Part shown: positions 2,008 to 36,662 of the stretch, one piece after another
How the letters are laid out: every line of letters starts with the position of its first letter
Numbering within the stretch: position 1 is the first letter of the stretch
Virus record (IMG/VR): IMGVR_UViG_3300036780_000209
Span: 1 to 64,000 of that record
DNA from: a virus
Strand: one strand, 5' to 3'
Length of the DNA stretch: 64,000 nucleotides
Translations under genes and position numbers: made by a program
Notes under the pieces: model-generated
Databases searched by the model: none
What the model saw: the letters and a program-made list of their open reading frames with translations, nothing else
Told to the model about the DNA's origin: nothing

Positions 2008-2442
2008 TTATGTTCCCTCTTCCCGGAACCGTTCGGGCAGCGGGTACTCCAGTTCCCGGGTCTTCGGATCGGGCCAGGACGAGATAATGAGCACGGTCGC
2101 GGAAAAGGCCATCCAGACGACTGCGCTCAGCCATCCGTTAGGCAGGCTGCCGCCCAGCCAGTTAGCCAGGCTGACGCCTCCCCAGGAGAAATCTAGCATG
2201 GCTGCCAGCACGAAGGACCCCCGGTCTCTCCTGAGGAATGCCCCGGCTGCGCAGAATATGCCGGTCAGCATCCAGGAGACCTCCCAGGTGCTCCACGGCA
2301 GGTAAAGGTCCGCCGCCGCCCGCTGGGGAGTAGCAGTCAGGTGAAGGCCCCAGGCATAAACCAGGTCAAGAATGGCGAGGAAGAAAAGGAAAGCGCCCCG
2401 GTGCCCGGGCCTCCTCACCATTCCCCGGATCTTACCTATCAC
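2008..2442 (-). CDS. 4-TM membrane protein (holin-like)
   Basis: Four hydrophobic helices; probable GTG start at 2442 after GGAGG. Confidence 0.6.
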   Translation of the reverse strand: MIGKIRGMVRRPGHRGAFLFFLAILDLVYAWGLHLTATPQRAAADLYLPWSTWEVSWMLTGIFCAAGAFLRRDRGSFVLAAMLDFSWGGVSLANWLGGSLPNGWLSAVVWMAFSATVLIISSWPDPKTRELEYPLPERFREEGT

Positions 2443-2683
2443 TGGCTGCCTCCCAGGGGCGCTCGATCTCTTCCCTTCTTTCCGGGCTGAGGAGTCTTCC
2501 GTCCGCCCAGGCGTGAGTATCCCAGATGACATGAGGGACTTCCCCGAGGAAGTCCGCCGTCATTTTCGCGGCCTCGGCACGTGACGGCGAGCCGGGGAAA
2601 TCGAGGCGGATCCCGGACCCCCCGAAAGGATCCTGCCCGGATATTTCCCCGGCGCTGAGCACCTGCTGGTGATATGGCATCAT
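2432..2683 (-). CDS. Hypothetical protein
   Basis: Fills the gap between the HNH and the membrane genes; its stop overlaps the next start. Confidence 0.45.
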   Translation of the reverse strand: MMPYHQQVLSAGEISGQDPFGGSGIRLDFPGSPSRAEAAKMTADFLGEVPHVIWDTHAWADGRLLSPERREEIERPWEAASDR

Positions 2684-19064: not shown

Positions 19065-19119
19065 AGCGGCTCCTCGTGCCATTGATTGCAAGGGGGACTG
19101 TAGCGGCTCCTGCCGACAG

Positions 19120-19611
19120 TCAGGCGCGCTCGGCCGCGAGGTCGGGCTGGCGGCTCTTTCGGGGAACGCGCATGGCCAGGATCCCGGCCTCCGCCAGCAG
19201 GTCGCAGACATCCTGGCGGTCATCGTAGAAGACAGAGACCCCCAGTGCCCGGCAGGCGTTCAGCTTGAGTTCGGGGGCCTGGAAGGAGGCCGTGAAGATG
19301 ACCTCGTGCACGGGAACAAGCCGGGAGAACCCGGCGCTGCGCGCCTCGGCCTCGATGGTGCCGCGCCGGCGCGGGCCGATCGCGGAGATGATGAGGACCT
19401 TGTCCCCGCATATCAGGTGAGCGCGGGCCAGGCGCAGGAAGTAGGCGTGGTGACTGGCGACGTTCCACCAGTCGATGCCGATGGTCAGGGGCGGAGAGGC
19501 CGGGTAGAAGCCGGACCCGGGGCAGGCATTCCCGGCCGGGCCGTGCCCCCGGATCCGTCCGTCCTCGCGCAGCGTGATGTCCCGCCCGCAGCCGGAGCAG
19601 GTGGCTCTCAC
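19120..19611 (-). CDS. Zinc ribbon + HAD-like protein
   Basis: CSGC...H...CPGSG, IGID and FYDDR; GTGA overlap with the upstream microgene. Confidence 0.6.
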   Translation of the reverse strand: MRATCSGCGRDITLREDGRIRGHGPAGNACPGSGFYPASPPLTIGIDWWNVASHHAYFLRLARAHLICGDKVLIISAIGPRRRGTIEAEARSAGFSRLVPVHEVIFTASFQAPELKLNACRALGVSVFYDDRQDVCDLLAEAGILAMRVPRKSRQPDLAAERA

Positions 19612-19715
19612 GAGCAGCCCACGTGGCATCCGTAGGCATGGCGGTGGCAGTGATGCTTGTCCTTGTGGCTCCCGCAGTCACTGCAGAGGCAGAAGCACCC
19701 GGAGCAGTAAGCCAT
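19608..19715 (-). CDS. Cys/His-rich microprotein, family A
   Basis: GAGGAG RBS; MAYCSGCFCLCSDCGSHKDKHHCHRHAYGCHVGCS; stop overlaps the next start. Confidence 0.8.
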   Translation of the reverse strand: MAYCSGCFCLCSDCGSHKDKHHCHRHAYGCHVGCS

Positions 19716-19929
19716 TTTTCTCCTCAGGGGGGAAACGAGCCGGCCGGCGTCCGCCTGGACGCCGGCCGGTGAGCCTCAGGTGCCCTCGCCTCCCTCGCGG
19801 GCGGCAGGACTGCCTTCTGCTCGTCGTCGGTCAGGTGCGACAGGGCCTCCCCGAGGGTCGGAGCGCGCACCGTTGACGAGTCGCACTGGCAGTTACGATA
19901 TCTGATGCAAGGAAGTCTGTAAAGCCCTT

Positions 19930-21225
19930 TCAGCGGGCGGTAATGACGGGAGAGTTCGTCGTCCCGGTCGCCTGGACCACCTGGGCATACGAAGAGTTCG
20001 AGGTGCTGTCATCGGTGATGGCCGTAGTCGCGCCCTGGATCCACCCGGCGGCAATCGTAACGGCCGTGAGGGACGTGCTGTTGCCCTGGAGGATCATGCC
20101 GGTGGCGGGGCTGTTGGTGCCGGTGCCGTCGTCGTCCGTCCCGGGCCAGATGGAGATGGTCCCGGCGAGTACCGCGCCGGGGAAGGCGTTCACGTAGAGG
20201 CCGGCGTAGCCGCCGCCGCCGTGCTTGCCGTTGCGGCCGTCCCGGCGGAACGAGCACCCATCCACGATGAGGGGCACCCCGGTGTTGTTGCTGCTGGTGA
20301 TCATGCAGCCGTACTGCTCGTTCCGGTCGGTCGAGCAGCCGATGATCCGGCCCCCGCCTGACCCGGTTCCGGCGCTGGTGTTGGTGTAGGTGATCCCGTT
20401 GCCGCCATTGTGCTCGGCCCGGCAGCCGAGGAGGAGCCCGTTGGACAGGTTGGTCAGGGTCCAGCCGTCCCCGGCGCAGTTCTCGGTGTGGCACCAGCGG
20501 TAGTTGGCATCGCTGATCTTCGGGTGCATGAACCCGCTGCCCTGGGCATAGCGGATGGTGACGTGGTCGAACCAGGGGGCGTCCGGCCCCTGCCCGGTCG
20601 CGGCGCTGTTGACGTAGTTGACCCCGTTGCCGGTGACGTGGCTGACGCACATGTTGGTGACGTGCGGCCGGGAGATGTGGCCGTAGAACTGGATCCCGTC
20701 CACCGCCGGCTGGCTCACCTGGTGGGCGTCGATGTAGATCCCGGAGATCTTCTGCTCGACCGAGACGGTCTGCCAGCCGCCGTCCTGCTGGCCGAGGACG
20801 GAGATGATGCCGGACCAGGGGGCAGTGCCGTTCGACCAGCCGGGCACGGCCCTGATCACCGTGCCCCAGGCCCCGTCCAGGTACGTCGAGATCTCGTTGG
20901 CGGGGGACCCGATCAGGGCCGTGCCCGGCGGCGGCAGGATCGGCGCGCTCACCAGGTACGGCGCGGCGGCCAGGCGGACGGCCTGGCCGAGCGGCGCGGC
21001 GGCAGCCAGCGCGCCGTTGATCGCGCTGGTGTCGGCCAGGCCGCTCGGGTCGCCGGAAGGCGGGATGGTGGCGAAGACATCCTGCTGGGGGAGGCCGGAC
21101 TGCTGTGCCTGGAGCGAGGCGATCTGGCCCTGCATCAGGCTCAGAACGTCTGCGATGTTGTTGTGATCCTGCAGGTGGCCGGCCTGCCCGAGTGCTCGGG
21201 TGTCCGGCGGGATGATCGCGGGCAT
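19930..21225 (-). CDS. Right-handed beta-helix (pectate-lyase-like) protein, possible tailspike/depolymerase
   Basis: GDPSGLADTSAINGAL N-terminal motif and repeated NG-G/GC..N beta-helix turns; GGAGGAGG RBS. Confidence 0.8.
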   Translation of the reverse strand: MPAIIPPDTRALGQAGHLQDHNNIADVLSLMQGQIASLQAQQSGLPQQDVFATIPPSGDPSGLADTSAINGALAAAAPLGQAVRLAAAPYLVSAPILPPPGTALIGSPANEISTYLDGAWGTVIRAVPGWSNGTAPWSGIISVLGQQDGGWQTVSVEQKISGIYIDAHQVSQPAVDGIQFYGHISRPHVTNMCVSHVTGNGVNYVNSAATGQGPDAPWFDHVTIRYAQGSGFMHPKISDANYRWCHTENCAGDGWTLTNLSNGLLLGCRAEHNGGNGITYTNTSAGTGSGGGRIIGCSTDRNEQYGCMITSSNNTGVPLIVDGCSFRRDGRNGKHGGGGYAGLYVNAFPGAVLAGTISIWPGTDDDGTGTNSPATGMILQGNSTSLTAVTIAAGWIQGATTAITDDSTSNSSYAQVVQATGTTNSPVITAR

Positions 21226-21522
21226 GCATCCTCCTCCGCCACTTCCGGGCGGAGGAGGGCACGGTCACGGCGTCGGGGAGTCCCCGAGCACATCTTCGAA
21301 CGTGGTCTTCCCGAACAGGATGTCGGCGCAGGCGGTCCGGTACCCGGCGGCGAAGATCGCGAGCGGGTCCGCTGCCACCTCGGGATTGGCGGCCGTCCAC
21401 TGGCGGAAGGCATCTCGCAGGGAGGCGGGGATCTCCGGCTGGATCTTGGGCTGCTTCCCGGGCGGCGGCCCGCTGGTGCGCTTCGTCATGACAGCATTGT
21501 ACCAGATTACAAGGATCCTTAT

Positions 21523-22594
21523 CTAGTGCCTCATCCGGCGGCGGTGCAGCAGCTCGGGCGGCCCGATCCTGATCGGCGGCAGCCCCGGCCGGGGGCTCCT
21601 CTTCCGCCGGTCGGCATAGGAAGACCCGAAGCCGGGGATGAGTTCCGAGGCCCGGGTGATCGCGGCCCGGAGCACGTCCTCGCGCACCTCCAGGGTGACC
21701 TGGCACAGTGAGCACGGATCGTCGCCGTCATCGCAGCCGTCCTCGTGCTCTCCGTGCAGCAGCATCTCCTGGGCCGCCGCGACCAGCTCGGACAGGGCAA
21801 GCCGCGCATTGTCCAGGTCCAGGGCGAGCGCCATGATCCGGCGGCCACCCTGGCGGGTCATCTCCTCGGCTGCCGTCACCTTCCTGCGCGACTGGGCCAG
21901 CTCGACCTGCAGGCTGATTACCTGCTCGTCAGTTCCTCCCGCACCGGTCACTCATCCTCCCACCCGACGCTTCCCACGGTAAAGCGGCTGGCCCTCACCA
22001 GTCCTCCAGGCCGATATGCCGCAGAAGGCCTTCTGCGGCATCCAGGAAGCTCCTGCCGCCCTTGTCGATCCGCCCGAGGACAGACAGCAGGGGCCGCCAG
22101 CGGTCCCGCTCCGCGTCCTCCAGGGCCATCCGGGAGTTCTCCCTCTGGAGGGACGACACCTCGGCATCCAGGATCATCCTGTCGTCCTCGGCTGCCGCCC
22201 GGGCGGACTGGGTTACCCGGAGCTTCTTCTCGCTCTCGGCGAGCTGGCCGCGCAGCAGGACGGCCTCGGCGTCCCGGGAGCGGTACCCGGCCAGGTCCAC
22301 CCGCTGGCGCTCATGGTCCTGGGTCATTACCCCCAGGTCGCGCTTCGCCCGGTCCCGCTCGTTCTGCGCCGTGCCGAGCATCATCTGGAGCCTGCCGATG
22401 GTGCTGTCGCGGGCGCTCAGGATCTCCCGGTGCAAGCTCCTCAGCCGGGTCAGGTCGTCAGCCCGGTCCTCCAGCCGCTTCCGGGCACTCCGAAGCTCCT
22501 GCACCGTGGCCTCGAAGTTGCCGCTGAGGGTCAGCAGCTCGACGGTCTGGGCGTCGTAATCGGCGCGGAGGATCCTGTTCTCTTCCTCGGTCAT
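21523..22594 (-). CDS. Two coiled-coil hypothetical proteins (21995-22594, 21523-21951)
   Basis: Heptad patterns and RBSs. Confidence 0.6.
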
Positions 22595-22811
22595 GCGGCC
22601 CTCCTCGTGCGAGCCCGGGGCCTCGGGACGGCCAGGGCAACCCGGAGGCTGATCTCTTCCCGGGCCAGGGTGGCCTGGCAGTCACCCCCGGGCAGCCCGG
22701 GCTCATGGGCGCAGTCGCACCAGGTGCCCCCGGGGCATTCCCCGTGGCTGGTGCTGCGGCACGGACGGCAGATCATCTTTCCTCCTCGGAGCCGGGCGCT
22801 TGCAGGGGAGC

Positions 22812-24074
22812 CTACTCCGGGCGGATACCGCCGTAGCGGTCCTCCAGGTCGGCTGCCGCAGCGCCGGGAGTGTCCTGGCGCTTGCATGCCTCGTTGACGG
22901 CGGCCGGGCTCATGCCCCAGGTCACCGGCCCTTCCCAGGGCTCCCCGTACCAGTGCCCGATCAGGCGGCGGACCTGGTCCTCGCCGGCCAGCGCGAAGTT
23001 CTCCCGCAGGTCGGCCCGGCCCTCCCGGATGACGGCCTCGTCGAGCGCCTTGAGGCGGTTCGTGGTCAGCACGGTCAGCAGGCCGTGCGGGGTGGCGATG
23101 CCGTCAAGGCTGTTGAGGAGGCCGGACAGGGTGACCGTCCGGTCCTTCTTGCCTTCCTTGCGCTGGGTGGCCGCCTGGAAGACATCGGCGTCCTCCAGCA
23201 GCAGCATGGAGCGCGGGGACACGTAGGTGACGGTCCGGATGAGGTCGCTGTCCTTGTTCACGTCGGCCAGCGGCAGGTACCAGATGTCCATCCCGAAATG
23301 CCCCGCGACGGCCAGGGCGGTCGAGGACTTGCCGGTGCCGGGCTCTCCCTCGTACAAGTGGCCCCGGTGCCAGGGAATGCCCCGGTGGAGATAGGCCTCC
23401 TCGGAACCGAGGAAACGGCGGATGTCGGCGGTGATCCGGTCAAGCTGGCCCGGGGGCAGGATCACGCTCTCCAGGGGCCTCGCCGGCAGGTCGTCGAGCC
23501 GGCTCCAGTCGCCCCACTTGTCGAGGATCCGGAAGGTCGGCCGCTTCCGGACGCGAGTGGCCTGCTCCAGAATCCTGGCTATCTCGGCGAGCAGCGCGTC
23601 CCGTCCCGGCGGGGACGAGGCCGTGAAGACGATCTCGGGCGGGGTCCACCGCCCGTCGTGCGCGGCCTCGCTCTCGGCGACCTGAACCCGGATCCGGTAG
23701 CCCCCGACCCGGACGGCCTGCTCGCGGCTGCCGTCGTAGCGGAGCCTCAGCCGGTTCGCCTCGGTCATCACGTCCCCGGACATGATGACCTGGCGGGAGC
23801 GGGATGACCAGGCGACCAGGGCTCGCTGCTTCGCCGGGGGCAGCAGCGACAGCACCCACTCGTGCAGGTCATCGTAGACATCATCCTCGCTCGATACCCG
23901 GACCGTGAAGGTCCGCAGCGTCTTGACGTGGCCCTTCACCTTGGTGACGGCAGGCCAGGCCGCGTGCCCGGCGGCAATCGCCATGGCGAGGCGGGGAGCA
24001 CGGTCCCGGAGGGAGGCGATCAGGTCCGACGAGGTGCCGGGTGATTCCGTCCCGGGGAGGTGCAGGTCAGGCAA
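22812..24074 (-). CDS. AAA+ ATPase, BCS1-like
   Basis: RPLESVIL, GEPGTGKS, LLLEDAD, LSGLLNSLDG, TTN and REGRAD motifs. Confidence 0.9.
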   Translation of the reverse strand: MPDLHLPGTESPGTSSDLIASLRDRAPRLAMAIAAGHAAWPAVTKVKGHVKTLRTFTVRVSSEDDVYDDLHEWVLSLLPPAKQRALVAWSSRSRQVIMSGDVMTEANRLRLRYDGSREQAVRVGGYRIRVQVAESEAAHDGRWTPPEIVFTASSPPGRDALLAEIARILEQATRVRKRPTFRILDKWGDWSRLDDLPARPLESVILPPGQLDRITADIRRFLGSEEAYLHRGIPWHRGHLYEGEPGTGKSSTALAVAGHFGMDIWYLPLADVNKDSDLIRTVTYVSPRSMLLLEDADVFQAATQRKEGKKDRTVTLSGLLNSLDGIATPHGLLTVLTTNRLKALDEAVIREGRADLRENFALAGEDQVRRLIGHWYGEPWEGPVTWGMSPAAVNEACKRQDTPGAAAADLEDRYGGIRPE

Positions 24075-24420
24075 GTTTTCTCCCGTTCATGTTCATGATG
24101 TGCAGGAGCACGTTCAGCTCGTTCGGCAGCAGCATGTTCCCGGCCTGGCGGCCGGCCAGCAGCGCCCAGATCATGTCCAGGGCTCGTGAATCGCTGACAT
24201 TACCAGGTTCCTTGTCTTCGCCGTCAGTCATTATGACTTGCCGGGCACGTCAGGAAGGTCCCGGAGTAGGAGACCTGGACCACGATCTTCCACGACTGGC
24301 CGCAGGTGCAGCTCAGGTGCTGCCAGTCCTCGTCGGACCGGCCGAGGCTGACGCTGTGCGCAGGCGGCGGGGGAGGCGGCCGGAGAAGACGGCGGTAGCG
24401 TCCGGCTGCCGGGAGCATGA

Positions 24421-26416
24421 TCACCCGATCCTCACCCCGCAGCAGCAGCGGACCTCGCCGTCCGTCACCCCGGAGCTGGTGCAGTCCTGGTGCGACCCGG
24501 TGCCCTGGCTGGCGTTCTTGCAGGGCGTGCACTGCGTCATGAAGAGATCTCCTTGCCTTCGCTCGTTCCTGCTCGCTTCGAGCAGGCAGTCCTGCGGGTG
24601 CAGGTGGCAGCATGTCGTGCCGGTCCTGGCCAGGCCCAGGATCGCCCGGATGGTGAATTCCTGGACCGCCGCCGGGCCGCTCAGGCTGCGGAGCTGCTCC
24701 AGCTCGCCCGGGGTCAGGACCACGGACAGCCTGTAGCCGCCGAAGGCGGCGGCTTTCTGGACAGCTCGCTGCCCGGGATCCAGGGCATCCTGCCCGACCC
24801 ATGGCTCGAATCTCGCGTGCCCCACGTGCCAGTGCCTGCGATCGGTGAGGTTGTTCTCGTCATCGAACCAGCACGGGTAGATCTGCGCCCGGTTGGTGCT
24901 GAGCTTGTACCGGTTGGCGATGCGCCTCTTGTGCAGCCACGCCCCGGCCCAGGCATGGTGGGCGATCTTCGGCTTCCCGTGGCGGCCCATGTGCATCGAC
25001 CGGAACTCGCGGGTCGGATTCGTGCTGGTCACCGGCCCCTCGGCTTCGGGAGCACCGGGGCGCGGATCGAGTCCGGCACCTTCGACCAGTCGAGGCGGAG
25101 CGTCACGATATCCCAGGCGCGATCTTCCGACTTCTCGCGGCTGATCTCCCAGGCCTCGTCGGGCATCTCTTCGAGAATCCACTGGAGCGCGGTGCCCAGG
25201 TTTACCCGGACCGATGCGAGCTGGGTCAGCCCGGTCTCGCCCTTAGCCAGCTTGCGGTAGATGGTGACGCGGGCGCTTACTGCCTCAGGCATGCCTCTCC
25301 TCGGGCTCAGGATCGTAGCCGAGGACCTCGGCCAGGGTCATCTCCGACGGGTCGTAGTCCGGGTCGCCGTCCCGGAAGCGCCAGTACCTCAGCCCGGCGC
25401 GGTAGGCCGGCTGGGGAGGCTGCTCCAGCCAGGCGGCCAGCTCGCGCCTGACCGTGAAGGCCCCGGTGGTGCAGCCGCTGGCGGTTATCACGTAGACGTA
25501 CTCGCTGCGGGCCATTACTCGTAGTCCACGGGGTAGCCCTGGCGCTGGAGCCGCGCGACGGGATCCGGCACCCGGACGACATCGGCGGTCACGGAGACCT
25601 CGATCAGGAAAACCCCCTCGCTGCAGGTGAAGACCGAGGGACGGTCATCATCCTCGCCGAAGAAGCGGCTGCTGCCGGAAGCGGACAGCACCTTGCGCGC
25701 CTGGCCGGCAGTGGCCCCGGCCCGCAGGCCGAGCTGCAGGGACGTGATGTCGAACTCGGCGGTGCCGTTGACGCGGACGTGAAACGTGGTCACTGCAGGT
25801 CCTTCCGGGGGTCTTCCGGGCCGTCCTCATGGCCGCAGCCGTCGCAGCGATCGTCGTCGGCGGCGATATGGCCGAGCCCCCGGCCGGCGCGCTGGCACTC
25901 CGGGCAGGGACGGCACAGCGGAAGGCCCATCTGCGCGAACTCGGGGTCGCGGCAGATGTAGCAGCTCTCGCGGTAGAGGCCCCGGACGGGAGTGGTGGTG
26001 AAGTCGTCCAGCAGGAGCGCGAAGGCCAGGTCCCCGGGCCTGGTGACCGTGTGGTTCACGCGCACGATCCGGCCATGCTCCGGGCAGAGGGTAAACGCGC
26101 CCGGCATGATGTTGCGCGGCTCCTCGGCGATGTGGCCGCCGGAGCAGTCGAGGAATACCTGGATCATGGGAAAATAGTATCAGTTACAAGGTTCCTTGTC
26201 ATCCGGGGGAGCTACCTCGGTAAAGCCGCCGAGGCGCTCCATGATCCGGATGAAATTATTCAGGTGGCCGTGGGAATCGTAGTAGCCACGGCACAGCGCC
26301 GCGCCGAATTCCGGGTGCTTCCCGTAGCTGAGGGTGCCGTGGCAGATGATGCCCTGGGACCCCTCCTGGCCGGCTGCCCGGACCATCGTGCGCAGCCGGC
26401 CAGGGCTGAGGTGCAT
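24421..26416 (-). CDS. Run of small coupled hypothetical genes (including 25029-25292, 25285-25515, 25515-25793, 25790-26167, 26180-26416)
   Basis: Overlapping stop/start codons; several CxxC motifs. Confidence 0.5.
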
Positions 26417-26506
26417 CGGGTTGCCCGGCCGGAAGATGCAGGTGGCGCACTGCGCCGACAGGAGCCGGGGGGCCTGGTCACCAGGTCGAAGCAGCTCTCG
26501 GCATCG

Positions 26507-26605
26507 CTAGGCATACTTGCAGCCTGAGTGATCGCCGCCGCAGATAAGGCACCCTCCGCACTTGCTGCACGGGTGAAGGCTGCACGTGTGCGGCATGTCG
26601 CTCAT
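26507..26605 (-). CDS. Cys-rich microprotein, family B
   Basis: MSDMPHTCSLHPCSKCGGCLICGGDHSGCKYA, packed between neighbouring genes. Confidence 0.6.
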   Translation of the reverse strand: MSDMPHTCSLHPCSKCGGCLICGGDHSGCKYA

Positions 26606-26607
26606 GG

Positions 26608-26922
26608 TCACCGGCCGAGCACCAGGTGCACCAGGCCGAGCCCCTGCACCTCCTCGTCGTCGATCACGATGTCCGGGATGTAGCCGAGCGCTCCCTTGGC
26701 GGCATAGGCATCGAAGAACGTGCTGAGCCGGAACGTGCGTACGATCCGCTCGGCGTAGTCCGCGCCTCCCCCCGACCAGGCGACCAGCCGGAGGCGGGGG
26801 AACATGGCCCGGAGCAGGACGACGAGCAGGCGGACGCGCTCGTTCGCGGCGTCCTCCTGGCCGTCTGACGGGCGCAGGAGGGTGCCGTCAATGTCGAACG
26901 CGACCGTGATCGCGGTGGTCAC
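26608..26922 (-). CDS. Small HAD-superfamily protein
   Basis: AFDIDGTL, WSGGG, K and IVIDD motifs. Confidence 0.8.
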   Translation of the reverse strand: MTTAITVAFDIDGTLLRPSDGQEDAANERVRLLVVLLRAMFPRLRLVAWSGGGADYAERIVRTFRLSTFFDAYAAKGALGYIPDIVIDDEEVQGLGLVHLVLGR

Positions 26923-28469
26923 GGGATCACCACGGGGATGATCTTCTTGCCCGGCCCGATCCGCTCGGCCAGCTCGTGCAGCGGGTTCACGTCGTGACGG
27001 CGCTCGGACTCGGCGAGCGGCTCGACTTCCCGCGTCTCGCCGAAGACCGCCACCTGCTGGGCTAGCCAGCGGTCAACGGCCTCGCTGCCGGTTCCGCCGG
27101 GGTAGGTGACTGCGGCCAGGTCCTTGTGCTGCCAGCGCAGGGACGGCTCGCACTGGGCACTGGCCCGGGGAAGCTGGTGGGTCATCAGGTCCTCGCCGGT
27201 CATCCAGCCCAGGATGTCGTAGACGCCGCCGATGCGACGGGGCGACACCAGGCAGCCGGTGGTGATCGAGAAGATGTCGCCGATATGGAAGGACTTCGAG
27301 GTCATTCGCGGTTCTCCTGGCGGCTGAGGTAGTCAGCCATGATTCGCCGGCCGGCCTCGAAGGCTTCCTCCGGCGTCGGGTGACTTGTTCCGAATACAGG
27401 ATGGCAGACGCCGAACAGCGCCATGATGCGGTCGGCGTCCTCCCGGCCGAGGTAGCCGGTGACGTAGCCGACGTTCTCGCCGGCATGCGGGTTCACGGCC
27501 CGGTAGGCGCGCAGGAACTCCTGCGCCTCGGGGCCGGACCTCACGGCCGCGACCGCGTCGATGAGGTCCCCGGTGGTGGCCAGCTCGCGGCCCTGCCAGA
27601 TCATCTGCATGCCTCCGAGTAGGCCAGGAAGCTGGCGCTGGCCGCCCGCAGGCCGGCCGCCGCCCGGGTGAGGTTATGGACCTCCGTGGGGATCAGGCAG
27701 CCCGCCTCGGTGCCTCCCTCGTCCTGGGGGAGCACCGAGGCCTGGGCCAGGAGCGAGGCGGCCTGGCGGGTCAGCGCCCGGGCCGAGTCGATCAGGGCGT
27801 TCCTCAGCTCGTCGCGATCACGCATCGTCTGCCCTGGTCAGGTCCGTGGCAGCGTCGCGCCCGGCCGCGATCTCGTCGCAGCGCCGGGCCTGGGCCTCCA
27901 GGGCCTCAGCCTGCTGCTGGCGCTCCATGTTGTAGCCATAGACACGCTGCTGCGCGGCCCCGGCCCGGTAGACCGAGGCCATGTCACGCCAGTCCTGGGA
28001 TGTCATCTGCTGTTCCTTCCTCCAGGGCGGGGACCTGGACTGCGGTGGTCACGGTGACCGGCTCGGGCGGGATGGCGGCGATCTGCACGAGCAGCCTCAT
28101 GAGCTGCTCCAGGGAGACCCAGCCATGCACGTCATGAGTCAGCGGGGTGGGGAAGTGCGGGATGGCCGGGATGAAGAAGCCCTCCGCCTCCTCGTCCCAG
28201 GCCCGCTTGTCCGTGATGATCTTCCAGTGGTCCGGGCCGGGGCCGTGGAACCTGATCACCGCCAGCTCGTAGAGGCCCTCGCCCGGGGGCGGGAGGCTCT
28301 CGCGGGTGGCGTAGGCACCGGCACCGCGTATCACCGACGCCCCGTATCCCGAGGCGAACCGGTAGACCCACTGGTGGCGGGGCTCTCCAGGGCGGCTGGT
28401 GTCCCAGGCACCGACGGGACTCAGCTCCGCCGGCAGCGGGGGGAGCACGCTCTCGGGAAGGATCGTCAT
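26919..28469 (-). CDS. Five coupled hypothetical genes (27984-28469, 27818-28006, 27601-27825, 27302-27610, 26919-27305)
   Basis: Operon-like overlaps downstream of a TAAGGT-6nt-ATG leaderless promoter. Confidence 0.6.
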
Positions 28470-28537
28470 GAGTCCACCTTACCCGTTAACCAGGTTCCTT
28501 GTAAATGATAAGGTGGAAGACGGAAAGGAGAAGATGA

Positions 28538-28660
28538 ATGACCGAGGACGAGACGGACTGCCCGGGGAAAGGCTGCTCCTGCGCCTGCAGCGGCTGCCGC
28601 TACTATTCGCACTGCGGGACCTGCATGGGCGGGTGCCACAGGTGGTGCGGAAAGCGATGA
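28538..28660 (+). CDS. Cys/His-rich microprotein, family A, array gene 1
   Basis: AAGGAG RBS; MTEDETDCPGKGCSCACSGCRYYSHCGTCMGGCHRWCGKR. Confidence 0.85.
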   Translation: MTEDETDCPGKGCSCACSGCRYYSHCGTCMGGCHRWCGKR

Positions 28661-28803
28661 GGAGGAAGGAAGTGACCGGGACGGAAAGCGAAGACGGCTG
28701 CTCAGGCTGCACGTGCGCCTGTGACGGCTGCACGTATACCATTTTCAGCCATTGCTATGTCCATTCTGCCGGGTGCCACCGGGGATGCAGGGGAGCGTCA
28801 TGA
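28657..28803 (+). CDS. Cys/His-rich microprotein, family A, array gene 2
   Basis: ATGA overlap; MRRKEVTGTESEDGCSGCTCACDGCTYTIFSHCYVHSAGCHRGCRGAS. Confidence 0.85.
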   Translation: MRRKEVTGTESEDGCSGCTCACDGCTYTIFSHCYVHSAGCHRGCRGAS

Positions 28804-28934
28804 TGAGGGAGACCGAGGGCGGTACCGCCTGCCCGTTCACGAGCTGCGGATGCTCGTGCAGCGGGTGCAGCGCGAATCCGAAGGACCACTGCGTTAATCA
28901 CTCCAGCGGGTGCCATCTCCTCTGCGGGATGTGA
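28800..28934 (+). CDS. Cys/His-rich microprotein, family A, array gene 3
   Basis: ATGA overlap; MMRETEGGTACPFTSCGCSCSGCSANPKDHCVNHSSGCHLLCGM. Confidence 0.85.
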   Translation: MMRETEGGTACPFTSCGCSCSGCSANPKDHCVNHSSGCHLLCGM

Positions 28935-29068
28935 GGGGGGTGGAGGGATGCGGAAGCGCCGGCGGCTGCGACTGCTGGTGCGGCAAATGCACGAAGCCCG
29001 TGGGATTCGGGACCTGGGTGCACTGCCGGGATCACTCGGCCGGGTGCCATGCGAGCTGCTGCGGGTGA
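28931..29068 (+). CDS. Cys/His-rich microprotein, family A, array gene 4
   Basis: GTGA overlap; MRGVEGCGSAGGCDCWCGKCTKPVGFGTWVHCRDHSAGCHASCCG. Confidence 0.85.
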   Translation: MRGVEGCGSAGGCDCWCGKCTKPVGFGTWVHCRDHSAGCHASCCG

Positions 29069-29604
29069 CCAGGCTGCCGAGGTGCCCGGACGCCGGGTCG
29101 TGCTCATGCGGGTGCGATTCCTGGTCCGGGCACCGCTGCGGCCGGGGGGACCACTGCTGCCGTCACTGGCACGGCTGCCACCGGGGATGCAGTGGCTCCG
29201 CTGCCAGGGCGAACAGGGGGTCCCGGGGCTCAGTTCCCGTAGCTGGCGAGGTAGGCATCGCTGGCATAGGAGGTGACGGTGCCGGTCCACTGGCGGGTCC
29301 AGCCCCAGTCGTCCTCGACGTACATGGCGGCCTCGGCCTCGTCCAGCTCGATCTCCTCGCCCGTGTGCATCGCCAGCATCCGGATGACGCGGTCGTAGTC
29401 GCCGGACCGGTCCTGGGGCGTGACCAGGGCGATGTGCAGCTCCGGGATCCTGCCCCGGCGGAGCGACTCGGCCTTGCGCTCCAGGGCCTCCAGGGCCTGG
29501 GCCTTCCAGCCCTCCAGGGCTGCCTCGAACACCTTGCGGTGCCGCGCCCGGTTCTTCTCCAGGATGGCGATCAGCTCGGCGGTCTTCACGCTTACGGTAA
29601 ATGA
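29065..29604 (+). CDS. Cys/His-rich microprotein, family A, array gene 5 (motif ends at about 29190; no nearby stop, frame runs antisense through the next gene)
   Basis: GTGA overlap; MTRLPRCPDAGSCSCGCDSWSGHRCGRGDHCCRHWHGCHRGCSG... Confidence 0.6.
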   Translation: MTRLPRCPDAGSCSCGCDSWSGHRCGRGDHCCRHWHGCHRGCSGSAARANRGSRGSVPVAGEVGIAGIGGDGAGPLAGPAPVVLDVHGGLGLVQLDLLARVHRQHPDDAVVVAGPVLGRDQGDVQLRDPAPAERLGLALQGLQGLGLPALQGCLEHLAVPRPVLLQDGDQLGGLHAYGK

Positions 29605-29607
29605 CAT
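29230..29607 (-). CDS. Hypothetical protein
   Basis: Strong GC3 bias; TAAGGT-7nt-ATG leaderless start inside a palindrome copy. Confidence 0.7.
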   Translation of the reverse strand: MSFTVSVKTAELIAILEKNRARHRKVFEAALEGWKAQALEALERKAESLRRGRIPELHIALVTPQDRSGDYDRVIRMLAMHTGEEIELDEAEAAMYVEDDWGWTRQWTGTVTSYASDAYLASYGN

Positions 29608-30462
29608 GCAAGGAACCTTATCAGCCTCGCGGCGGGCTCGCTGGTGCCTCACCTCGCGCCAGGGACGGTGGCCGGTCACGGCAGCGGCCGGATGGCAGCC
29701 TTAGCGGCACCGGACAGCAGGATGCCGGCCGCGTCACGCCACGGGGGCTGCTCAGGCGGCCGGACCAGGGACCAGGCCCGGATGAGCTTCCCGAAGACGC
29801 CGGCCTGGTGCAGCCAGTACTCGTGGTCCTCGAACCCCTCCGGCCAGTCCAGGGTCTTGGAGGTGCGGTAGAGGAAGCGCCCCCGGGTGAAGCACGAGCG
29901 GTCCACCGGGTAGTACCGGTCGCGGAGCGGGCCGTCGAGAAAGACGGCGAAGGGCGGCTGGCTCACGGGCGCTCGTTCCAGGCGTGGCCGATGTAGAAGC
30001 CGGCCCGGTAAGCCTGGCCGCAGCGAGGGCACCAGACCGGCTCCTCCGGCCCGGGGGCGTCAGGCAGGCGGCGGTACCACTGAGCGGAATCGCCCTCCGG
30101 GTGAAAAGGCGGGCGCGGCATCGGGGTGAGCGAGTTCACGGGGGAGCGCGTCTCCTTCGGAGGTAAGCCGGCGCAGCGGGTCATGCCAGGGGCTGGCGGC
30201 GCAGCGCCATCCGCAGCCCAGCCGGGCGGCGACGGCACCGCACCAGCAGGACGAGAAGGTCAGGGCAGAGGCGAGGTCGCGCACCGTCCCCAGGGTAGCG
30301 ACGGCACGGCAGGATGTCACGGTTTTCCCTGGTCGCGGTGCCAGGTGATTCCGTCATGGGACCAGGCGAGGGGGGACGGGCGGGGACGGCGGCGCGGCCG
30401 GGAGGCGAGGACGGCAAGGAGGACGAGGAGGGCAGCCAGGGCATAGCAGGCGATGGCGGCGG

Positions 30463-30939
30463 TCATGCCGGCTCCCTGGCGCAGGCGGCGGCCGGGCCGT
30501 CGCAGTGGCGGCACCGCAGGTCCGGGAGCGGCCGGTGCGGGCACGAGGCGAGGAAATTGCGGAACTGGGGCTCGAACAGCGGGGATGGCAGCGTGTCCAT
30601 GGTGCACCAGCGCAATTCCGTGGCCTCCTCGGTGATGACCGGCTCGCCGGAGACGCTCATGATGTCCAGCCAGATGGTGAGCCAGTGCTCGCCGCAGTGG
30701 CACGGGTCGTTCGTGATGCCGCGCCAGCGGGGGGCGGAGGAGGCAGTGAGGCGGGTTTCCTCGTGCAGCTCGCGGGCGGCGGTGTCCTCCCAGTGCTCGC
30801 CGGGCTCCATCCGGCCGCCGGGGAGACCCCAGGTACCCGGGCCGCAGCCCGTGAGGCCACGGCGGATCATCAGGAACTTCCCGTCGCGCCAGGCGAAGAC
30901 GGCGGTGCCGGTGCGGGGCGGGCTGAGGTAATCTGTCAT
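30463..30939 (-). CDS. Nudix hydrolase
   Basis: GGRMEPGEHWEDTAARELHEET Nudix box. Confidence 0.9.
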   Translation of the reverse strand: MTDYLSPPRTGTAVFAWRDGKFLMIRRGLTGCGPGTWGLPGGRMEPGEHWEDTAARELHEETRLTASSAPRWRGITNDPCHCGEHWLTIWLDIMSVSGEPVITEEATELRWCTMDTLPSPLFEPQFRNFLASCPHRPLPDLRCRHCDGPAAACAREPA

Positions 30940-30970
30940 GTCACCATCCTAATGCAGGTTTCCTTGTATG

Positions 30971-31129
30971 TCACGAGGGAGGGGGCGGGGGCCTCGGCTT
31001 GCGGGGCGGGTTGGGGGGAGTGCCGTCGGGGACCTCACGGCCGCCGTTGCCCTTGCAGTGACGGCAGGTATTGTCAGGCCGGCGGGCGTCCTCTCCCGAG
31101 CCGTCGCAGTGACGGCACTTCTGCCACAT
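30971..31129 (-). CDS. DnaJ-type zinc-finger microprotein
   Basis: MWQKCRHCDGSG...CRHCKGNG + Pro-rich tail (two CxxCxGxG). Confidence 0.65.
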   Translation of the reverse strand: MWQKCRHCDGSGEDARRPDNTCRHCKGNGGREVPDGTPPNPPRKPRPPPPPS

Positions 31130-31437
31130 GACGGGTCAGCCCGTCGGGGGGACGACGTTGCGCCAGCAGTCCGGGGCGTGCGGGTCGTGGCAGGTGTCGC
31201 GCAGGCAGCCGTCGCACGTCGCCAGGGGATCCAGGCACTTCGGGCAGGTGCCGGGCGGGACGGGGACCGGGGTCAGGCGGCGGGGGCTCACGGGTAATCC
31301 CTGTCCTTGCCGGGTCATCATTTCTCCTCCGGCCTGCAGCTCTGCGCCGAGGGCGGCGAAGCCCTGGCTGGCGAGCAGGTCGCAGGCGAACGCCCCGGCG
31401 TGCTCCATCCAGGGGCCCTGGCGGCCGGCGGGGGCTC

Positions 31438-31755
31438 TCACGATGCCCTCCGGAAGATCCAGTGCGCCTCGTAGGTTTCGTTATAGCCGGGGCGGTCGAA
31501 GGTGACGGACCAGCCGGCGGCGCGGTAGGCGGGGGCGATGCCCGCGATGGCGGCCGAGACGAGGCCCGGGGCGAGGGAGCTGTTCTCCCGGGAGACGGCG
31601 GGGAGCACGTCCGTGGCGGGGAACTCGGCGTAAGTGCCCTCCCAGTGCAGCAGGATGAGCTTGTTGAAGGCAGCGAGGACCGCCGGGGGGATGACGGCAT
31701 GCTTGAGCGCGGCGGCCTCGGGCGGGGTGACCGGGCGGTCGAGGGGGATGTCCAT
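31438..31755 (-). CDS. Hypothetical protein
   Basis: MDIPLDRPVTP...YRAAGWSVTFDRPGYNETYEAHWIF; start overlaps the upstream stop. Confidence 0.65.
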   Translation of the reverse strand: MDIPLDRPVTPPEAAALKHAVIPPAVLAAFNKLILLHWEGTYAEFPATDVLPAVSRENSSLAPGLVSAAIAGIAPAYRAAGWSVTFDRPGYNETYEAHWIFRRAS

Positions 31756-31883
31756 CAGCGGCAGCCGGCGTGGCAGCGGCTGGAGCGGGGATCGCAGTGG
31801 CCGGTGCCGTTCAGGCACGGGCCGCAGGTAATGCACCCGCAGGCGCCGGCCTGGGTGCAGCCGACGGGCATCCTGGCGGTCAA
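31755..31883 (-). CDS. Cys/His-rich microprotein, family A (divergent; may be the C-terminus of a longer ORF)
   Basis: GGAGG + TTG; ...MPVGCTQAGACGCITCGPCLNGTGHCDPRSSRCHAGCR. Confidence 0.6.
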   Translation of the reverse strand: MTARMPVGCTQAGACGCITCGPCLNGTGHCDPRSSRCHAGCR

Positions 31884-33171
31884 TGTATCCTCCCTGGTCA
31901 CTCGCTGTAGTCGCATCCGGCATTGCCGCACTTCCGGACGCCGTTCAACGGTGGTCATGCTGTGCGGCGCGAGGCTGTACACGCACCAGCACCGGTTGCA
32001 GTCGGCGGTCACTTTTCCTGACTCATTCGTGGTGCACATTTTCCTGTTCCTCACCGGGGGCGGCATCATTGCGGCTTTCATTGTAATCGACAGGCGGGTG
32101 CCCGCGCAGGCCGGCCTGCTTCTCCAGGTCGCCGACGCGGACCCAGAGGCCGAGGACGGCGAGCGTCAGGACGGCCGAGACGACGGCCAGGGAGATGAGG
32201 GCCGGGAGGAAGGCATGGGCAGTGCTGTTCACGCCAGTCCTTTCCCGGGGGCCGTGCGGCCGTGGCGGAAGTGGCCCAGGCAGGGGAACGGGGCGATCCG
32301 GCCCTGCCCCGGGCTGGCGATGCGGCGGGTGCTGCGCGACCGGCGCCGGCGCATGGCGCGCAGGGCACCGTCGGGTGACTGGCCGGTGACAATGGCCAGC
32401 GTCCGGGCAGGGGCCGGACCGGGGGCCGCGTTCAGGGCAAAGAGCATCCTGGCCTGGAGGGCGCTGAGCTTCTTCATGACGATCACCTTCTGATGATGCT
32501 GGCGGAGGCGGAGCAGGTGATCATGCCGCCGCCTTCCTGCGGATGCCGGCCGGGAGCAGGCCGTTGCGGGCGGCCGGCTTGAGGCGGCGGCGCTGCACCC
32601 GGTCCCAGACGTGCGGGAAGACTACCTCGCGGCAGGCCAGGCAGCGGCCGTCGGTGCCGATCCGGCCGGCGCACTCTGTCGTCGTCATGATGACAGCTTA
32701 TCACAGATTTGATAGGCTTCCTTGTAATCGAAGGGAGAATATCATGGTGATTTCCGGGGCGGCGGCGTGGTGCTGGGTGCAGTTCAGCACCGGGGTGAGC
32801 AGCGGGTGGTTCCCGAGGGCCAGCGAGCCGCCGCCGTACGTGACGTGCGTAAGGTCGGCGGCGAAGCCGGGATGGGTGCCCGCTGCCGCCGCGCACCACG
32901 GGCACCTGCTGCTCGGCAGCGGCGGGGGCATCGGCAGCGGGGCGGGGATCGCCGTCGCGCTGATCGCGGTGGCGGCAGCGCTGGGCGGGAAGCTGATGAA
33001 GGGCAGGGGATGAGGAAGAAGCGGCACTGGGGCGGCTGAGGGGCAACGGTAACTCTGAGTAACCGAGGTTTGTCCTGGTCCGGGAGGCCAGATGCGGACA
33101 CATGGTCATGTGCGCAAGTCCCCCGGCCCTAGGGCCAACCCCAACGTTTTCTATACGCAGAGTGACGACGA

Positions 33172-33285
33172 TCAGGTGCCAGGGCAGTTCTTATGACACC
33201 CGGCGTTGTGATTGCCGCAGTGGTCGTCCCGCTTGCACTGGCTGCAGGAGCACGAGCCGGCTGATGCGCATACTGAGATTCTCAT
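33172..33285 (-). CDS. Cys/His-rich microprotein, family A
   Basis: MRISVCASAGSCSCSQCKRDDHCGNHNAGCHKNCPGT; TAGGCT-7nt-ATG possible leaderless start. Confidence 0.75.
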   Translation of the reverse strand: MRISVCASAGSCSCSQCKRDDHCGNHNAGCHKNCPGT

Positions 33286-33415: not shown

Positions 33416-33730
33416 ATGACGACGAACCCGTACTCCCCCCGGGCGATGCTGATCATCCGGGCCGCCGTCCTCTGGCGCGACGCCCGGGACGCCGGGGACC
33501 GCACGAAGCGCGCCACCGTGAGAGACGCCCAGCTTGACGCCTTCTCCCAGGTCGCGGCCGACATCATGGACTTCGCGAGCACGCCGGAGGAGTTCCGGGA
33601 AGCGGTGATCGGGGCCGTGCGCGCCATCCCCTGGACGCTGCGGGAGAGCCTCGGCCGCGACGAGGCCCTGGCCGTCCGGCAGGAGTGGAAGCAGGCCGTC
33701 GCCGATCACGCCGCCAGGGCGCTGGCCTAG
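33416..33730 (+). CDS. Hypothetical protein
   Basis: TATACT-6nt-ATG leaderless start. Confidence 0.7.
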   Translation: MTTNPYSPRAMLIIRAAVLWRDARDAGDRTKRATVRDAQLDAFSQVAADIMDFASTPEEFREAVIGAVRAIPWTLRESLGRDEALAVRQEWKQAVADHAARALA

Positions 33731-36090
33731 GGGTACAGCTCGCCGTCCATCTCGTCCCCCGAGACGCCCAGCCGGGAGCGCATCCCCACGTGGCGGGGGG
33801 TGCGGGCATACGCCGGGGCCGGCCCCGCGAGGAACGGCTCCGACCGCTCGGTCTCCCGGTGCGCCGTGAACTCGTGCAGGTCAGGGGCATCCTGTGCCCC
33901 CTGGTCCGAAGCTGTGATCACAGCTTCGCGCACCCTCGCGGTTCTCCTGAAAAGGGCCGCGTCGCTGATGACGCGGCGGAGAGCACGGGGGGCAACAGCA
34001 CCATCCTCCCTGTGCCCTCCCTGAGCCGCCCCGTCATCCTCCGTGCCATGCCGCAGGCCCTCAGCCTGCCCGTGTGCCCGTGTCCCGTCCCAGGTCCCGG
34101 TGCCATCGCTGCCGGTCACCCTGCGCATGGCGTGCACCTGGGTCTTCCCGCCTCCGGGGACGGGCATCCCGCCGCGCTCGTCACTGGACTCCCCGGGTAC
34201 CTGGGACTCCCCGTCATCCTGGTCAGGGGCGAACGGGTCCCCTCCCTCGCCGGGCGGGGGCTCCTCCTCGCCTTCCCCGCCGAGCATCATGTCCTCGGCG
34301 GTGGGTGCCAGGTCGGGCAGCTCCAGCGGGTCGGTGCCGAGCCTCGGTGCCATGATCATCTGCGCGGCCAGGGCCGGGGGGACCTCTTCGAGCTGGGCCA
34401 TCGGGGCGAAGTCGGCCATCAGGTCAGGGGGGACCGGGTACCCGCCGTCCCTCAGCGCGATGAACGTCTGCTTGCGGGTCTCCTGCTCGGCGACGGCGAG
34501 CTGCACCGCCTCGTCCTGGCTGCGCTGCACCTCCTCGTCCAGGTCGAAGTCCAGGTTCCTGGTGCGGGTCCTCATGGACACCGGGACCCCCGTCTCGCGC
34601 AGCGCCTCGGTGAACTGGCGGACCAGGTCCTCGTCCTTGAAGTTCAGGGTCTTGAACAGCAGGTCCGGGATGAGGAGCCTCGGCTGCTCGGTGATGCGCT
34701 TCCCGCCGGTCTCCTCGTCCTCTTCGAGCACTTCCTCCATGACCACGTAGCGCTTGCCGGCCCGCTCCTCGTAGTCATAGTGCTCCTGGGCCTCCGCCAC
34801 GATGAGGGCTCTCTTGCGGAAATGGCGCACCAGGTACTTCTGGTACCTCGTCATGAGCTGGGTGACCAGCTCCTTGTTCAGGGCGTCGGCGGCGTAGGTC
34901 TGGCCGCCCTGGGCTCCCATCAGGAAGGTGCGGCTCAATCCGAACACCTGCAGGACCCGGTCCTCGATCCGCTCGAAGTCAGGGGTCAGGTCCGGCATGT
35001 TCTCCTTGCCGAAGACCTGCTCGATCTCGATGGCGAAATTGTGGATCAGGGCGCGGAAGTCACCCGCCAGGGCCGCGTCTAGTGCCAGCTCGAAGGACTC
35101 CAGGTCGTCATCTGTGGGAATCCAAGGAACGCTCGTGCCCAGGTCTGTAGCCGAAGCTCCCAGCTTGCAGAGAATGAGGGGAGTGTAGAGGCGGTCTGCG
35201 ATCGAATCGAGGGCGGTGTTGAGCATCTCCTGCTGCAGCATGGGCCGCATGGCACGAGTGAGGAGCGGGACTCCACGGACATTGAACGTGTCCCCCTTGA
35301 AGCGGAGCTGCTGCATGAGCACCGAGCTGACCGGCATGAAGCTGTTCTCGCTGGTGTAGGCCACCAGCTCCGGGTACTCCTGAATCAATTTGTTATATTC
35401 CCAGGCCGGCTGCCTGGTCTGCAGGACCTGGCGGATCGTCCACGGCAGCCGGATGAAGTACCTCGGCTCCTTGAGGAACGGGGAGCGCTCCACCTTGACA
35501 TCATCGGGATTGAGCAGCTCCTCGTCATCCCAGATGCCCAGGTCCTCGTTGAAGGTGGCGAACGGCCACGCCTCCCCCACCGTCCAGTACTCGCGGCCGA
35601 TGTCCACCAGGAACTCCTCGTAGTCCAGGTGGTCCTCGTCGAAGAACTGCTCGGTGTAGAACTCGGTGAGCTTCTCGTCCTTGCAGCGCAGCTCGTGGCC
35701 CAGCACCGGGAACTTCGAGAAGATGTCCACGCAGGACCCGATGATCGGGTCCGTCTGGTACAGCAGCCTGCAGAAGGACCTGACCTTGGCCAGCTCCTCG
35801 TTCTCGGAGAAGTCATACGGGAGGTTGTTCTGCCGCCAGTAGAACAGCGGGTCCCGGGGCCGGCCGGTGGCGAACTGGATGTCGCCGAAGCCGCCTCCCG
35901 AGCCCGACGCCGCCGTGCGGCTCAGCTTGCCGTTGACGTGCCTGTTCTTCCTGGCCTCCTTGACCTCCGGGGTCATCTGGTCATCACGCAGGCCCCGCTG
36001 GCCGAACGCGAAGCCACGGCCGCCCATCAGGCGGATGACGCCCTGGTCGCTGTGCGAGCCGATCCGGGGATTGAACGGGACCCGGGTCAC
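33727..36090 (-). CDS. Portal protein with acidic C-terminal extension
   Basis: RLLYQTDPIIGSCVDIFSKFP, IGREYWTVGEA, LLNPDDV, RGVPLL and ADRLYTPLIL resemble Bxz1-like phage portals (recollection, not searched); GTGA-coupled start. Confidence 0.8.
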   Translation of the reverse strand: MTRVPFNPRIGSHSDQGVIRLMGGRGFAFGQRGLRDDQMTPEVKEARKNRHVNGKLSRTAASGSGGGFGDIQFATGRPRDPLFYWRQNNLPYDFSENEELAKVRSFCRLLYQTDPIIGSCVDIFSKFPVLGHELRCKDEKLTEFYTEQFFDEDHLDYEEFLVDIGREYWTVGEAWPFATFNEDLGIWDDEELLNPDDVKVERSPFLKEPRYFIRLPWTIRQVLQTRQPAWEYNKLIQEYPELVAYTSENSFMPVSSVLMQQLRFKGDTFNVRGVPLLTRAMRPMLQQEMLNTALDSIADRLYTPLILCKLGASATDLGTSVPWIPTDDDLESFELALDAALAGDFRALIHNFAIEIEQVFGKENMPDLTPDFERIEDRVLQVFGLSRTFLMGAQGGQTYAADALNKELVTQLMTRYQKYLVRHFRKRALIVAEAQEHYDYEERAGKRYVVMEEVLEEDEETGGKRITEQPRLLIPDLLFKTLNFKDEDLVRQFTEALRETGVPVSMRTRTRNLDFDLDEEVQRSQDEAVQLAVAEQETRKQTFIALRDGGYPVPPDLMADFAPMAQLEEVPPALAAQMIMAPRLGTDPLELPDLAPTAEDMMLGGEGEEEPPPGEGGDPFAPDQDDGESQVPGESSDERGGMPVPGGGKTQVHAMRRVTGSDGTGTWDGTRAHGQAEGLRHGTEDDGAAQGGHREDGAVAPRALRRVISDAALFRRTARVREAVITASDQGAQDAPDLHEFTAHRETERSEPFLAGPAPAYARTPRHVGMRSRLGVSGDEMDGELYP

Positions 36091-36662
36091 GCGTCCACCA
36101 GCTCGCCATTGGTCACGAACCCGTGCCAGCCGTTCGTGCCCGTGCACAGGATCGACGGCGTGACGGTGAGCAGCGGGGCGGTCCCGCTGACCGTCCAGTA
36201 CCCGCCGTCCGAGGCGCGCTGGGTGCTGACCCACTCATGACCGCCGGGCAGCGAGATGATCCACGACTCGGCCCCGCCGGGATGGCGGCTGTATGCGTCG
36301 TGCCAGTCGGCGCGCACCATGGTGCCGGGAGGGGCGTTGCGGCCGAACGAGCCCCACATCGGGAACTCGGTGCCGTCAGGCAGCCGGAAGATCCTGTTGT
36401 CGTTGCGCTGCCACTGGTCGCCGTCCGCGAACTCACGGCCGCATCGCTCGCATGCCGCAGGCCACCGGTCGTCATCATGCGGCCAGTTGTCTCCGTGAAC
36501 GCGCTCGTGCTCGTCCTCGCCCACGGTCCCGGTGATCACGCTGGCGTCGTGGCCGTACTCGTATCCGGGGCATTCCGGCCCCTTGTCGGTGCTGAACGTG
36601 AACCGCCTCAGCATGCGCTCATAGCGGCCGGTGAACTCGGCGATGACGAGGGGGATGCTCAT
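36087..36662 (-). CDS. Conserved phage protein with DUF6527-like C-terminus
   Basis: WTVSG...LTVTPSIL...WHGFVTNG motif. Confidence 0.6.
   Translation of the reverse strand: MSIPLVIAEFTGRYERMLRRFTFSTDKGPECPGYEYGHDASVITGTVGEDEHERVHGDNWPHDDDRWPAACERCGREFADGDQWQRNDNRIFRLPDGTEFPMWGSFGRNAPPGTMVRADWHDAYSRHPGGAESWIISLPGGHEWVSTQRASDGGYWTVSGTAPLLTVTPSILCTGTNGWHGFVTNGELVDA

Follow-up and report, generated by a model that had tools for sequence, protein, structure and literature searches.

The stretch of DNA analysed here is the first 64,000 nucleotides (the window) of IMG/VR virus record IMGVR_UViG_3300036780_000209, the genome of a tailed phage (166,498 bp, 67.7% GC, CheckV completeness estimate 100%). 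At positions 28538-29200 the window carries a cassette of five very short open reading frames (ORFs), designated g1 to g5, that encode Cys- and His-rich microproteins of one family. The features of the locus are given below, with E values from a profile hidden Markov model (HMM) that was built from 167 unique members on other contigs, leaving this genome out (the leave-out HMM).

28473-28517, plus strand: promoter/operator-like region with an inverted repeat, a recurrent motif and an extended -10-like element
28524-28530, plus strand: Shine-Dalgarno (SD) sequence AAAGGAG, 7 nt upstream of the g1 ATG, as read from the sequence
28538-28660, plus strand: g1, 40 aa, with Cys in place of the second His (E 5.3e-6)
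28657-28803, plus strand: g2, 48 aa with ATG 28657 as its start, 43 aa if GTG 28672 is used (E 3.6e-8)
28800-28934, plus strand: g3, 44 aa, with an ATGA overlap with g2 (E 1.2e-9)
28931-29068, plus strand: g4, 45 aa, with a GTG start and a GTGA overlap with g3 (E 5.8e-9)
29065-29187, plus strand: g5 domain, with a GTG start and a GTGA overlap with g4 (E 2.2e-7)

Stop-start overlaps are ATGA at 28657 and 28800 and GTGA at 28931 and 29065. In every proposed frame the GC content of third codon positions (GC3) exceeds that of the other positions, with values of 0.84-0.89 (0.69 for g2). A sequence-only reading of this DNA had described five ORFs chained by exact ATGA/GTGA overlaps behind an AAGGAG ribosome-binding site (RBS), the first four with products of 40-48 aa and all with a common Cys/His pattern. 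Coordinates, frames and GC3 confirm the chain; the RBS core was read at 28525-28530, the four products are 40, 48, 44 and 45 aa long, and all five align on the pattern. Another SD, GGGGAG, lies 5 nt upstream of the g3 start. Note that the g1/g2 overlap may not be the junction in use, because the alternative in-frame g2 start at GTG 28672 sits behind a stronger SD, AGGAGGAAGG. A start at ATG 28534, giving an out-of-frame leader across g1 fused to g2, was rejected on the basis of GC3 phase and RBS spacing. Within g4, ATG 28948 is a possible alternative start in the g5 frame that would add a 39-residue non-family leader; it sits behind a strong SD, GGGGGGTGGAGGG, and GC3 phase favours the family frames. 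At the DNA level the unit of the cassette repeats every 131-137 nt, and the stretches encoding the conserved motif are only 66-82% identical.

The last conserved Cys codon of g5 is at 29185-29187, after which the frame remains open to 29604 (139 codons without a stop). The extension runs antisense through a convergent gene at 29230-29679(-), and GC content by codon position is that of an antisense frame there. The only public run containing the stretch is a soil metagenome, its probable source; the contig from a second assembly of that run is identical across the cassette and has the same open frame at g5. No stable hairpin was found 3' of g5 (z = +1.4), and no intrinsic terminator was found after it in a consensus scan. 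The longer spacer that had been noticed in g5 places it in a long-spacer subfamily that is also present on contigs L043, L031, L254, L258 and L271. Its best match, at 56% identity, is outside the genome (L043:4891-5025), and members of the subfamily elsewhere stop 0-3 residues past the last Cys. This copy may be a truncated boundary of the cassette, or it may give a non-stop or extended product.

The family pattern is C-x4-5-C-x-C-x-C-x2-C-x3-15-H-C-x2-H-x2-G-C-H-x2-C. By the family definition, g1 to g5 and four solo ORFs of the genome are members, with g1 and the solo member at 31755 lacking the second His. Conservation was computed over 143 non-redundant sequences (median aligned length 43 residues). 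Depending on the position, the eight Cys are kept in 87-100% of the sequences and the three His in 96-100%, followed by the Gly preceding the seventh Cys (70%) and the Ala-Gly pair preceding the second Cys (45% and 56%), all other columns being at 28% or less. Loop length from the fifth Cys to the first His ranges between 3 and 15 residues, and the chain ends 0-8 residues past the last Cys (four or fewer in most members). Eleven ligand-type residues are contained in ~32 core residues, and conserved hydrophobic positions are absent. The constant scaffold with variable loops that had been suggested is found in the alignment: eight Cys, three His and one Gly are constant and the remaining residues vary.

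When the leave-out HMM was applied to all 3,260 six-frame ORFs of the genome, nine matched (E 3e-11 to 5e-6) and nothing else was returned at E ≤ 10. Zero matches were obtained with the reversed genome and with five shuffles. The members outside the cassette are as follows.

19608-19715, minus strand: solo member, 35 aa (E 1.1e-7)
31755-31871, minus strand: divergent solo member, 38 aa (E 3.3e-6; E 3.8e-7 with a later family profile)
33172-33285, minus strand: solo member near the portal gene, 37 aa (E 3.4e-11)
146355-146477, minus strand: ninth member, found with the leave-out HMM, with GCC in place of GCH

The earlier count of eight members holds for the window (five in the cassette plus three solo) and is one short for the whole genome. 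The member at 31755-31871(-), in addition to missing the second His, has RCH for GCH, and its stop codon directly adjoins the probable start of the gene that follows.

For orthologue pairs on different contigs, the pooled ratio of non-synonymous to synonymous change (pN/pS) is 0.26, with several pairs at 0.03-0.13; the orthologues of L029 and L063, for example, differ by six synonymous changes and one non-synonymous change. Because the ORFs are detected by an independent profile that returns nothing from decoys, and because their orthologues are under purifying selection, they are almost certainly protein-coding genes and form one diversified family, as had been proposed. The opposite view, that GC-rich DNA has produced spurious ORFs or contains a repeat in decay, can draw on the very short length of the ORFs, the many open frames of such DNA, the absence of a stop in g5 and the near absence of relatives from protein databases. 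It is scarcely credible given the detection and selection just described, a pattern kept across contigs of 44-74% GC, and the presence of an RBS and coupled starts.

Relatives were gathered using degenerate DNA patterns for the C-terminal motif, conservation being too low for back-translation of the alignment. The first pattern gave 46 IMG/VR loci, in 25 of which members were confirmed by profile at E ≤ 1e-3; four further profile matches among these loci were set aside as likely out-of-frame. A stricter pattern gave 44 metagenome loci with 136 profile matches across them. This profile search of other viral contigs, which had been put forward as a check, shows that members are widely conserved across contigs. 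Carriers are uncultured soil phage and metagenome contigs and fall in at least three unrelated phage backgrounds.

Background 1: this 166-kb myovirus-like phage
Background 2: array adjoining the endolysin and tail-fibre end of the late region
Background 3: array upstream of endolysin or large terminase

Genes for endolysin, tail fibre, terminase and DNA polymerase are found next to arrays. Adjacency to an endolysin is seen in two unrelated lineages, at L029:4189-5004(-) and L291:4795-5892(+), the latter with GH25 and PG-binding domains. The L258 contig, which has 20 members, also encodes a 238-aa ORF with a Ribosomal_L10 domain (1891-2607(-), Pfam E 8e-21), possibly a phage-encoded homologue of ribosomal protein L10.

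Searches of protein collections returned very little. An exhaustive HMM search of 1.84 billion representative proteins gave three matches, and a word-indexed protein search gave none using the first alignment and one using a later alignment. Such results say little, because microORFs are rarely called as genes; the scarcity presumably stems from gene callers skipping them. One representative-library protein (P0001, 119 aa) is encoded by one ORF that contains the family domain twice, with a Ser/Arg-rich linker in between; this is a natural fusion or else the product of read-through across two neighbouring genes. At the nucleotide level, a tblastn search of 50,697 GenBank phages with three members as queries produced no match beyond chance level (E ≥ 4). 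No member was detected in 401 sampled Actinomycetota genomes, for which a positive control was run, and the matches among the 120 loci listed from a pattern scan covering one genome for each bacterial species were essentially chance-like. Among these bacterial matches, only L130 and L200, on Saccharibacteria/Saccharimonadia metagenome-assembled genome (MAG) contigs, show family-like upstream Cys (E 4e-5 to 1e-4). Both are dubious; their tails are longer, and they may be phage contigs that binning has placed in MAGs. On the searches made, the family is phage-associated and apparently phage-only.

Members occur singly or in arrays of 2-20, the largest being those of L258 (20) and L291 (18), with 8-10 in L249 and L029. 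Non-redundant pairs of adjacent members number 95, of which 43 share 4 or 1 nt and 24 are separated by 0-15 nt. Because such tight packing is common, chaining of genes is a trait of the family. The SD of the following gene often falls within the codons of the conserved GCHxxC motif. Neighbouring copies are only 35-53% identical. For seven of the nine members in the genome, the best match is on another contig (50-56% identity, versus 42-46% with neighbours), and only g1 and g2 are mutual closest relatives. Since most members match another contig better than their neighbours, these sequence comparisons indicate that the paralogues are old.

Comparisons with known families were performed with the five cassette members and 54 members from the wider set. 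No metallothionein match (PF02069 Metallothio_Pro) was obtained in Pfam-A for the 54 members at E ≤ 1, and no relevant zinc finger, zinc ribbon or Cys-rich domain of unknown function was obtained in Pfam or NCBIfam for either set. The sole matches there were to four unrelated families, with one member each (E 0.05-0.45). In PHROGs, window members had no match at a meaningful E value, and the 54 members matched no family at E ≤ 0.01. The family profile, run against all PDB chain sequences at E ≤ 10, returned only two unrelated weak matches, and nothing relevant on such a family was found in the literature searched. The suggestion that the family had not been described is thus in agreement with Pfam, NCBIfam, PHROGs, PDB sequences, GenBank phages and that literature. 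A feature search of the ESM Atlas gave look-alikes at 0.82, which is below threshold. AlphaFold2 models had a pLDDT of 51.7 with 54 sequences and 61.8 with 143 sequences. Neither Foldseek against the PDB nor VIA-align against 48,161 chains returned a match, the models being too weak to inform on fold. The zinc-binding anti-sigma (ZAS) motif, H-x3-C-x2-C, was compared with the family C-terminal pattern, H-C-x2-H-x3-C-H-x2-C, and is not present: the second His lies in H-x3-C, and the next Cys follows at C-x3-C.

Upstream of the cassette, a 68-bp divergent intergenic region contains an imperfect 16-nt inverted repeat (28473-28488 / 28502-28517, 81% complementary), the recurrent motif GGTTCCTTG at 28493-28501 and an extended -10-like element, TGATAAGGT, at 28506-28514. 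The motif, written (A)CAAGGTTCCTTG, has at least 15 intergenic copies across the phage genome. A count over the window gave 23 matches at up to two mismatches, versus 8.6 expected; none of 100 shuffles reached 23. Positions of the motif include the following.

In the window: 12660(-), 14515, 24206, 26190, 28493, 29617(-), 41286(-), 46455
Elsewhere in the genome: 94289, 132726(-), 151688(-), 165744(-)

(A)CAAGGTTCCTTG usually stands directly 5' of a -10 of the TGnTAAGGT- or TAAAAT-type, and several copies lie in the spacer downstream of a TTGACn -35. The copy at 29617(-), at the start of the convergent neighbour, abuts a leaderless ATG. This arrangement suggests a phage-wide promoter/operator class that would also drive the cassette. 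Of the palindrome-bearing promoter in the sequence-only reading, the palindrome stands, as an imperfect inverted repeat. Promoter function remains a prediction, and a sigma-70 consensus scan found no promoter upstream of the cassette.

The portal gene is at 33727-36234 on the minus strand (PHROG match E 5e-143), and a minor tail protein, a NUDIX hydrolase and an AAA ATPase are also encoded nearby. The host is likely an actinobacterium, because the portal is ~39% identical to portals of Mycobacterium cluster-C-type myoviruses. Nearly all coding-like ORFs at ~9.5-38 kb are on the minus strand, so that the cassette forms a small plus-strand island; the flanking minus-strand genes match phrog_4074 and phrog_34511, of unknown function. 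A megablast search with the 10-kb region around the cassette gave no match. Our own six-frame HMM scan of the nearest two complete relatives (portals 71-77% identical) detected no family member, and none of the 20 proteins encoded at 18015-32232 has a real tblastn homologue there. The sole match was a 34-43 aa fragment of the minor tail protein, whereas the adjacent portal is well conserved. Because these two relatives have neither a family member nor a homologue of the block, the region at ~18-33 kb is a hypervariable accessory region. Five complete relatives reached via the portal, these two among them, have no family member, nor do ten distant relatives reached via a neighbouring gene (30-46% identity).

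The explanation we favour, to which we give an even chance as a whole, is a coupled operon of metal-stabilised mini-binders aimed at host factors. The five ORFs would constitute one small operon, on the strand opposite to the minus-strand accessory block in which it lies, and would probably be transcribed from the phage-specific promoter class, with a predicted start. Terminating ribosomes would restart on the next gene through the 4-nt stop/start overlaps, giving coupled translation. In each product the eleven ligand-type residues would hold a compact multi-metal cluster, most likely with two or three Zn(II), that folds a chain too short for a hydrophobic core. Each paralogue would then bind its own partner, and the array would amount to a panel of binders acting on host factors, in take-over of the cell or in counter-defence. 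Binding of metal by the peptides is the firmer part and is likely, because eleven conserved ligand-type residues in ~32 and no conserved hydrophobic positions are what a metal-cluster mini-fold would have. The binder panel is more tentative, a little short of an even prospect. It is favoured because the non-ligand residues, including those of the 3-15-residue loop, vary from one paralogue to the next while orthologues retain them. Such retention would be needless in a simple metal sponge or if the copies served to raise the dose, and both are disfavoured for that reason.

Several observations weigh against this explanation. Metal binding is argued from composition, and expression from sequence. 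With AlphaFold2 confidence as low as it is, the models back the cluster neither by fold nor by ligand geometry. No defence or counter-defence gene consistently adjoins the arrays. The proximity of endolysin genes may point to a late or lysis-related role instead, or may reflect chance module boundaries. To these should be added the empty sigma-70 scan and the missing stop of g5, by which at least this copy may be aberrant or may yield a non-stop or extended product.

One competitor of the binder panel is a metallothionein-like function, in which the peptides buffer, sequester or deliver Zn or Cu, thereby supplying metalloenzymes or blunting metal stress, and arrays serve dosage. The density of ligand-type residues and the typical CxCxC and CxxC runs fit this function, as does participation of His, which is known from bacterial SmtA/BmtA; a high copy number could raise the dose. 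Dosage, however, predicts near-identical copies, whereas neighbours have the divergence given above and most have closer relatives elsewhere, and orthologues retain their non-ligand residues (pN/pS 0.03-0.3). Bacterial metallothioneins (SmtA/BmtA, Metallothio_Pro) are likewise short Cys-dominated chains with few His, CxC/CxxC runs and a presumed multi-metal thiolate cluster. The family differs in having eight Cys and three His at fixed spacing that ends at the C-terminus, in giving no match to PF02069 or to PDB chains at the sequence level, in consisting of arrayed diverged paralogues each under purifying selection, and in not being found in the cellular genomes searched. We therefore consider the phage metallothioneins of the sequence-only reading unlikely: paralogues share only the ligands, orthologues keep the rest, and there is no SmtA or Pfam match. 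A role as nucleic-acid-binding regulators, with metal domains that bind DNA, RNA, RNA polymerase or the ribosome at paralogue-specific sites, is improbable to the same degree. Binding of nucleic acids is common among Cys-rich Zn-cluster domains, the peptides as a set are mildly basic (median pI 8.2, with 57% above pI 8), and the cassette lies behind a putative phage-wide regulated promoter class. On the other hand, conservation is confined to the ligand residues and extends to no basic or aromatic residues that could serve in recognition; ~10% of the peptides are acidic, and known DNA-binding zinc-finger models give no match.

Much less probable still are precursors of ribosomally synthesised and post-translationally modified peptides (RiPPs) or of bacteriocins, in which the Cys-rich peptides would be modified or secreted. 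Arrays of short, diverse, Cys-rich ORFs do resemble multi-precursor RiPP loci such as those of prochlorosin-type lanthipeptides, and the ESM Atlas look-alikes are named as rSAM-modified RiPP and lantibiotic, at a score (0.82) below the meaningful level. Unlike such loci, the family has no conserved leader and no leader/core architecture: N-termini are variable, without signal peptide-like sequences in the alignments, and the conserved His and Cys span the peptide to its C-terminus. No conserved modifying enzyme was found in the flanks of 26 family-bearing loci, and the phage genome has no radical-SAM (PF04055) or YcaO (PF02624) match, Lan-type enzymes not having been specifically searched. With no maturase nearby and no radical-SAM or YcaO gene in the phage, this reading is weak.

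The mini-binder explanation can also be set beside other systems. Eukaryotic Zn3Cys9-type domains (CXC/tesmin, pre-SET) and Zn2Cys6 clusters are Cys-dense modules folded on shared or bridged zinc without a hydrophobic core. They are short and have CxC and CxxC motifs; the family differs in having no detectable homology to them, three invariant His, stand-alone products of 35-55 aa and a fold that is not confidently predicted. T4 internal-protein/hyperplastic regions, anti-CRISPR/anti-defence clusters and the multigene families of large DNA viruses, which were compared by analogy only, are likewise tandem sets of small diverged paralogues in variable genome regions, with a patchy distribution, missing in close relatives. 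The family has no homology to these arrays; its proteins are much smaller, with Cys and His forming the scaffold. For family arrays, both an anti-defence role and an adjacent (aca-like) regulator, as in anti-defence clusters, are hypothetical. The family and its array architecture are new, while the biochemical style, a Cys/His metal mini-domain, is familiar.

A broader proposal, which we regard as doubtful, is that exchangeable libraries of a new multi-zinc mini-fold are carried across unrelated phages, the paralogues neutralising different host or defence factors and the arrays being reshuffled by recombination. If so, such an arms-race repertoire would constitute a class of phage effectors, for counter-defence or take-over, that had so far gone unseen, and would provide a compact, naturally diversified mini-binder scaffold. 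The gene architecture, with up to 20 translationally chained microgenes, would be unusual, and the metal-cluster fold may be new. The results make a case for six-frame, motif-driven searches, which recover conserved microproteins dropped by gene callers; if our inference holds, a large phage-associated protein family has been missed by standard annotation. Even with a mundane role in metal handling, a phage-specific family of metal-binding microproteins would be new.

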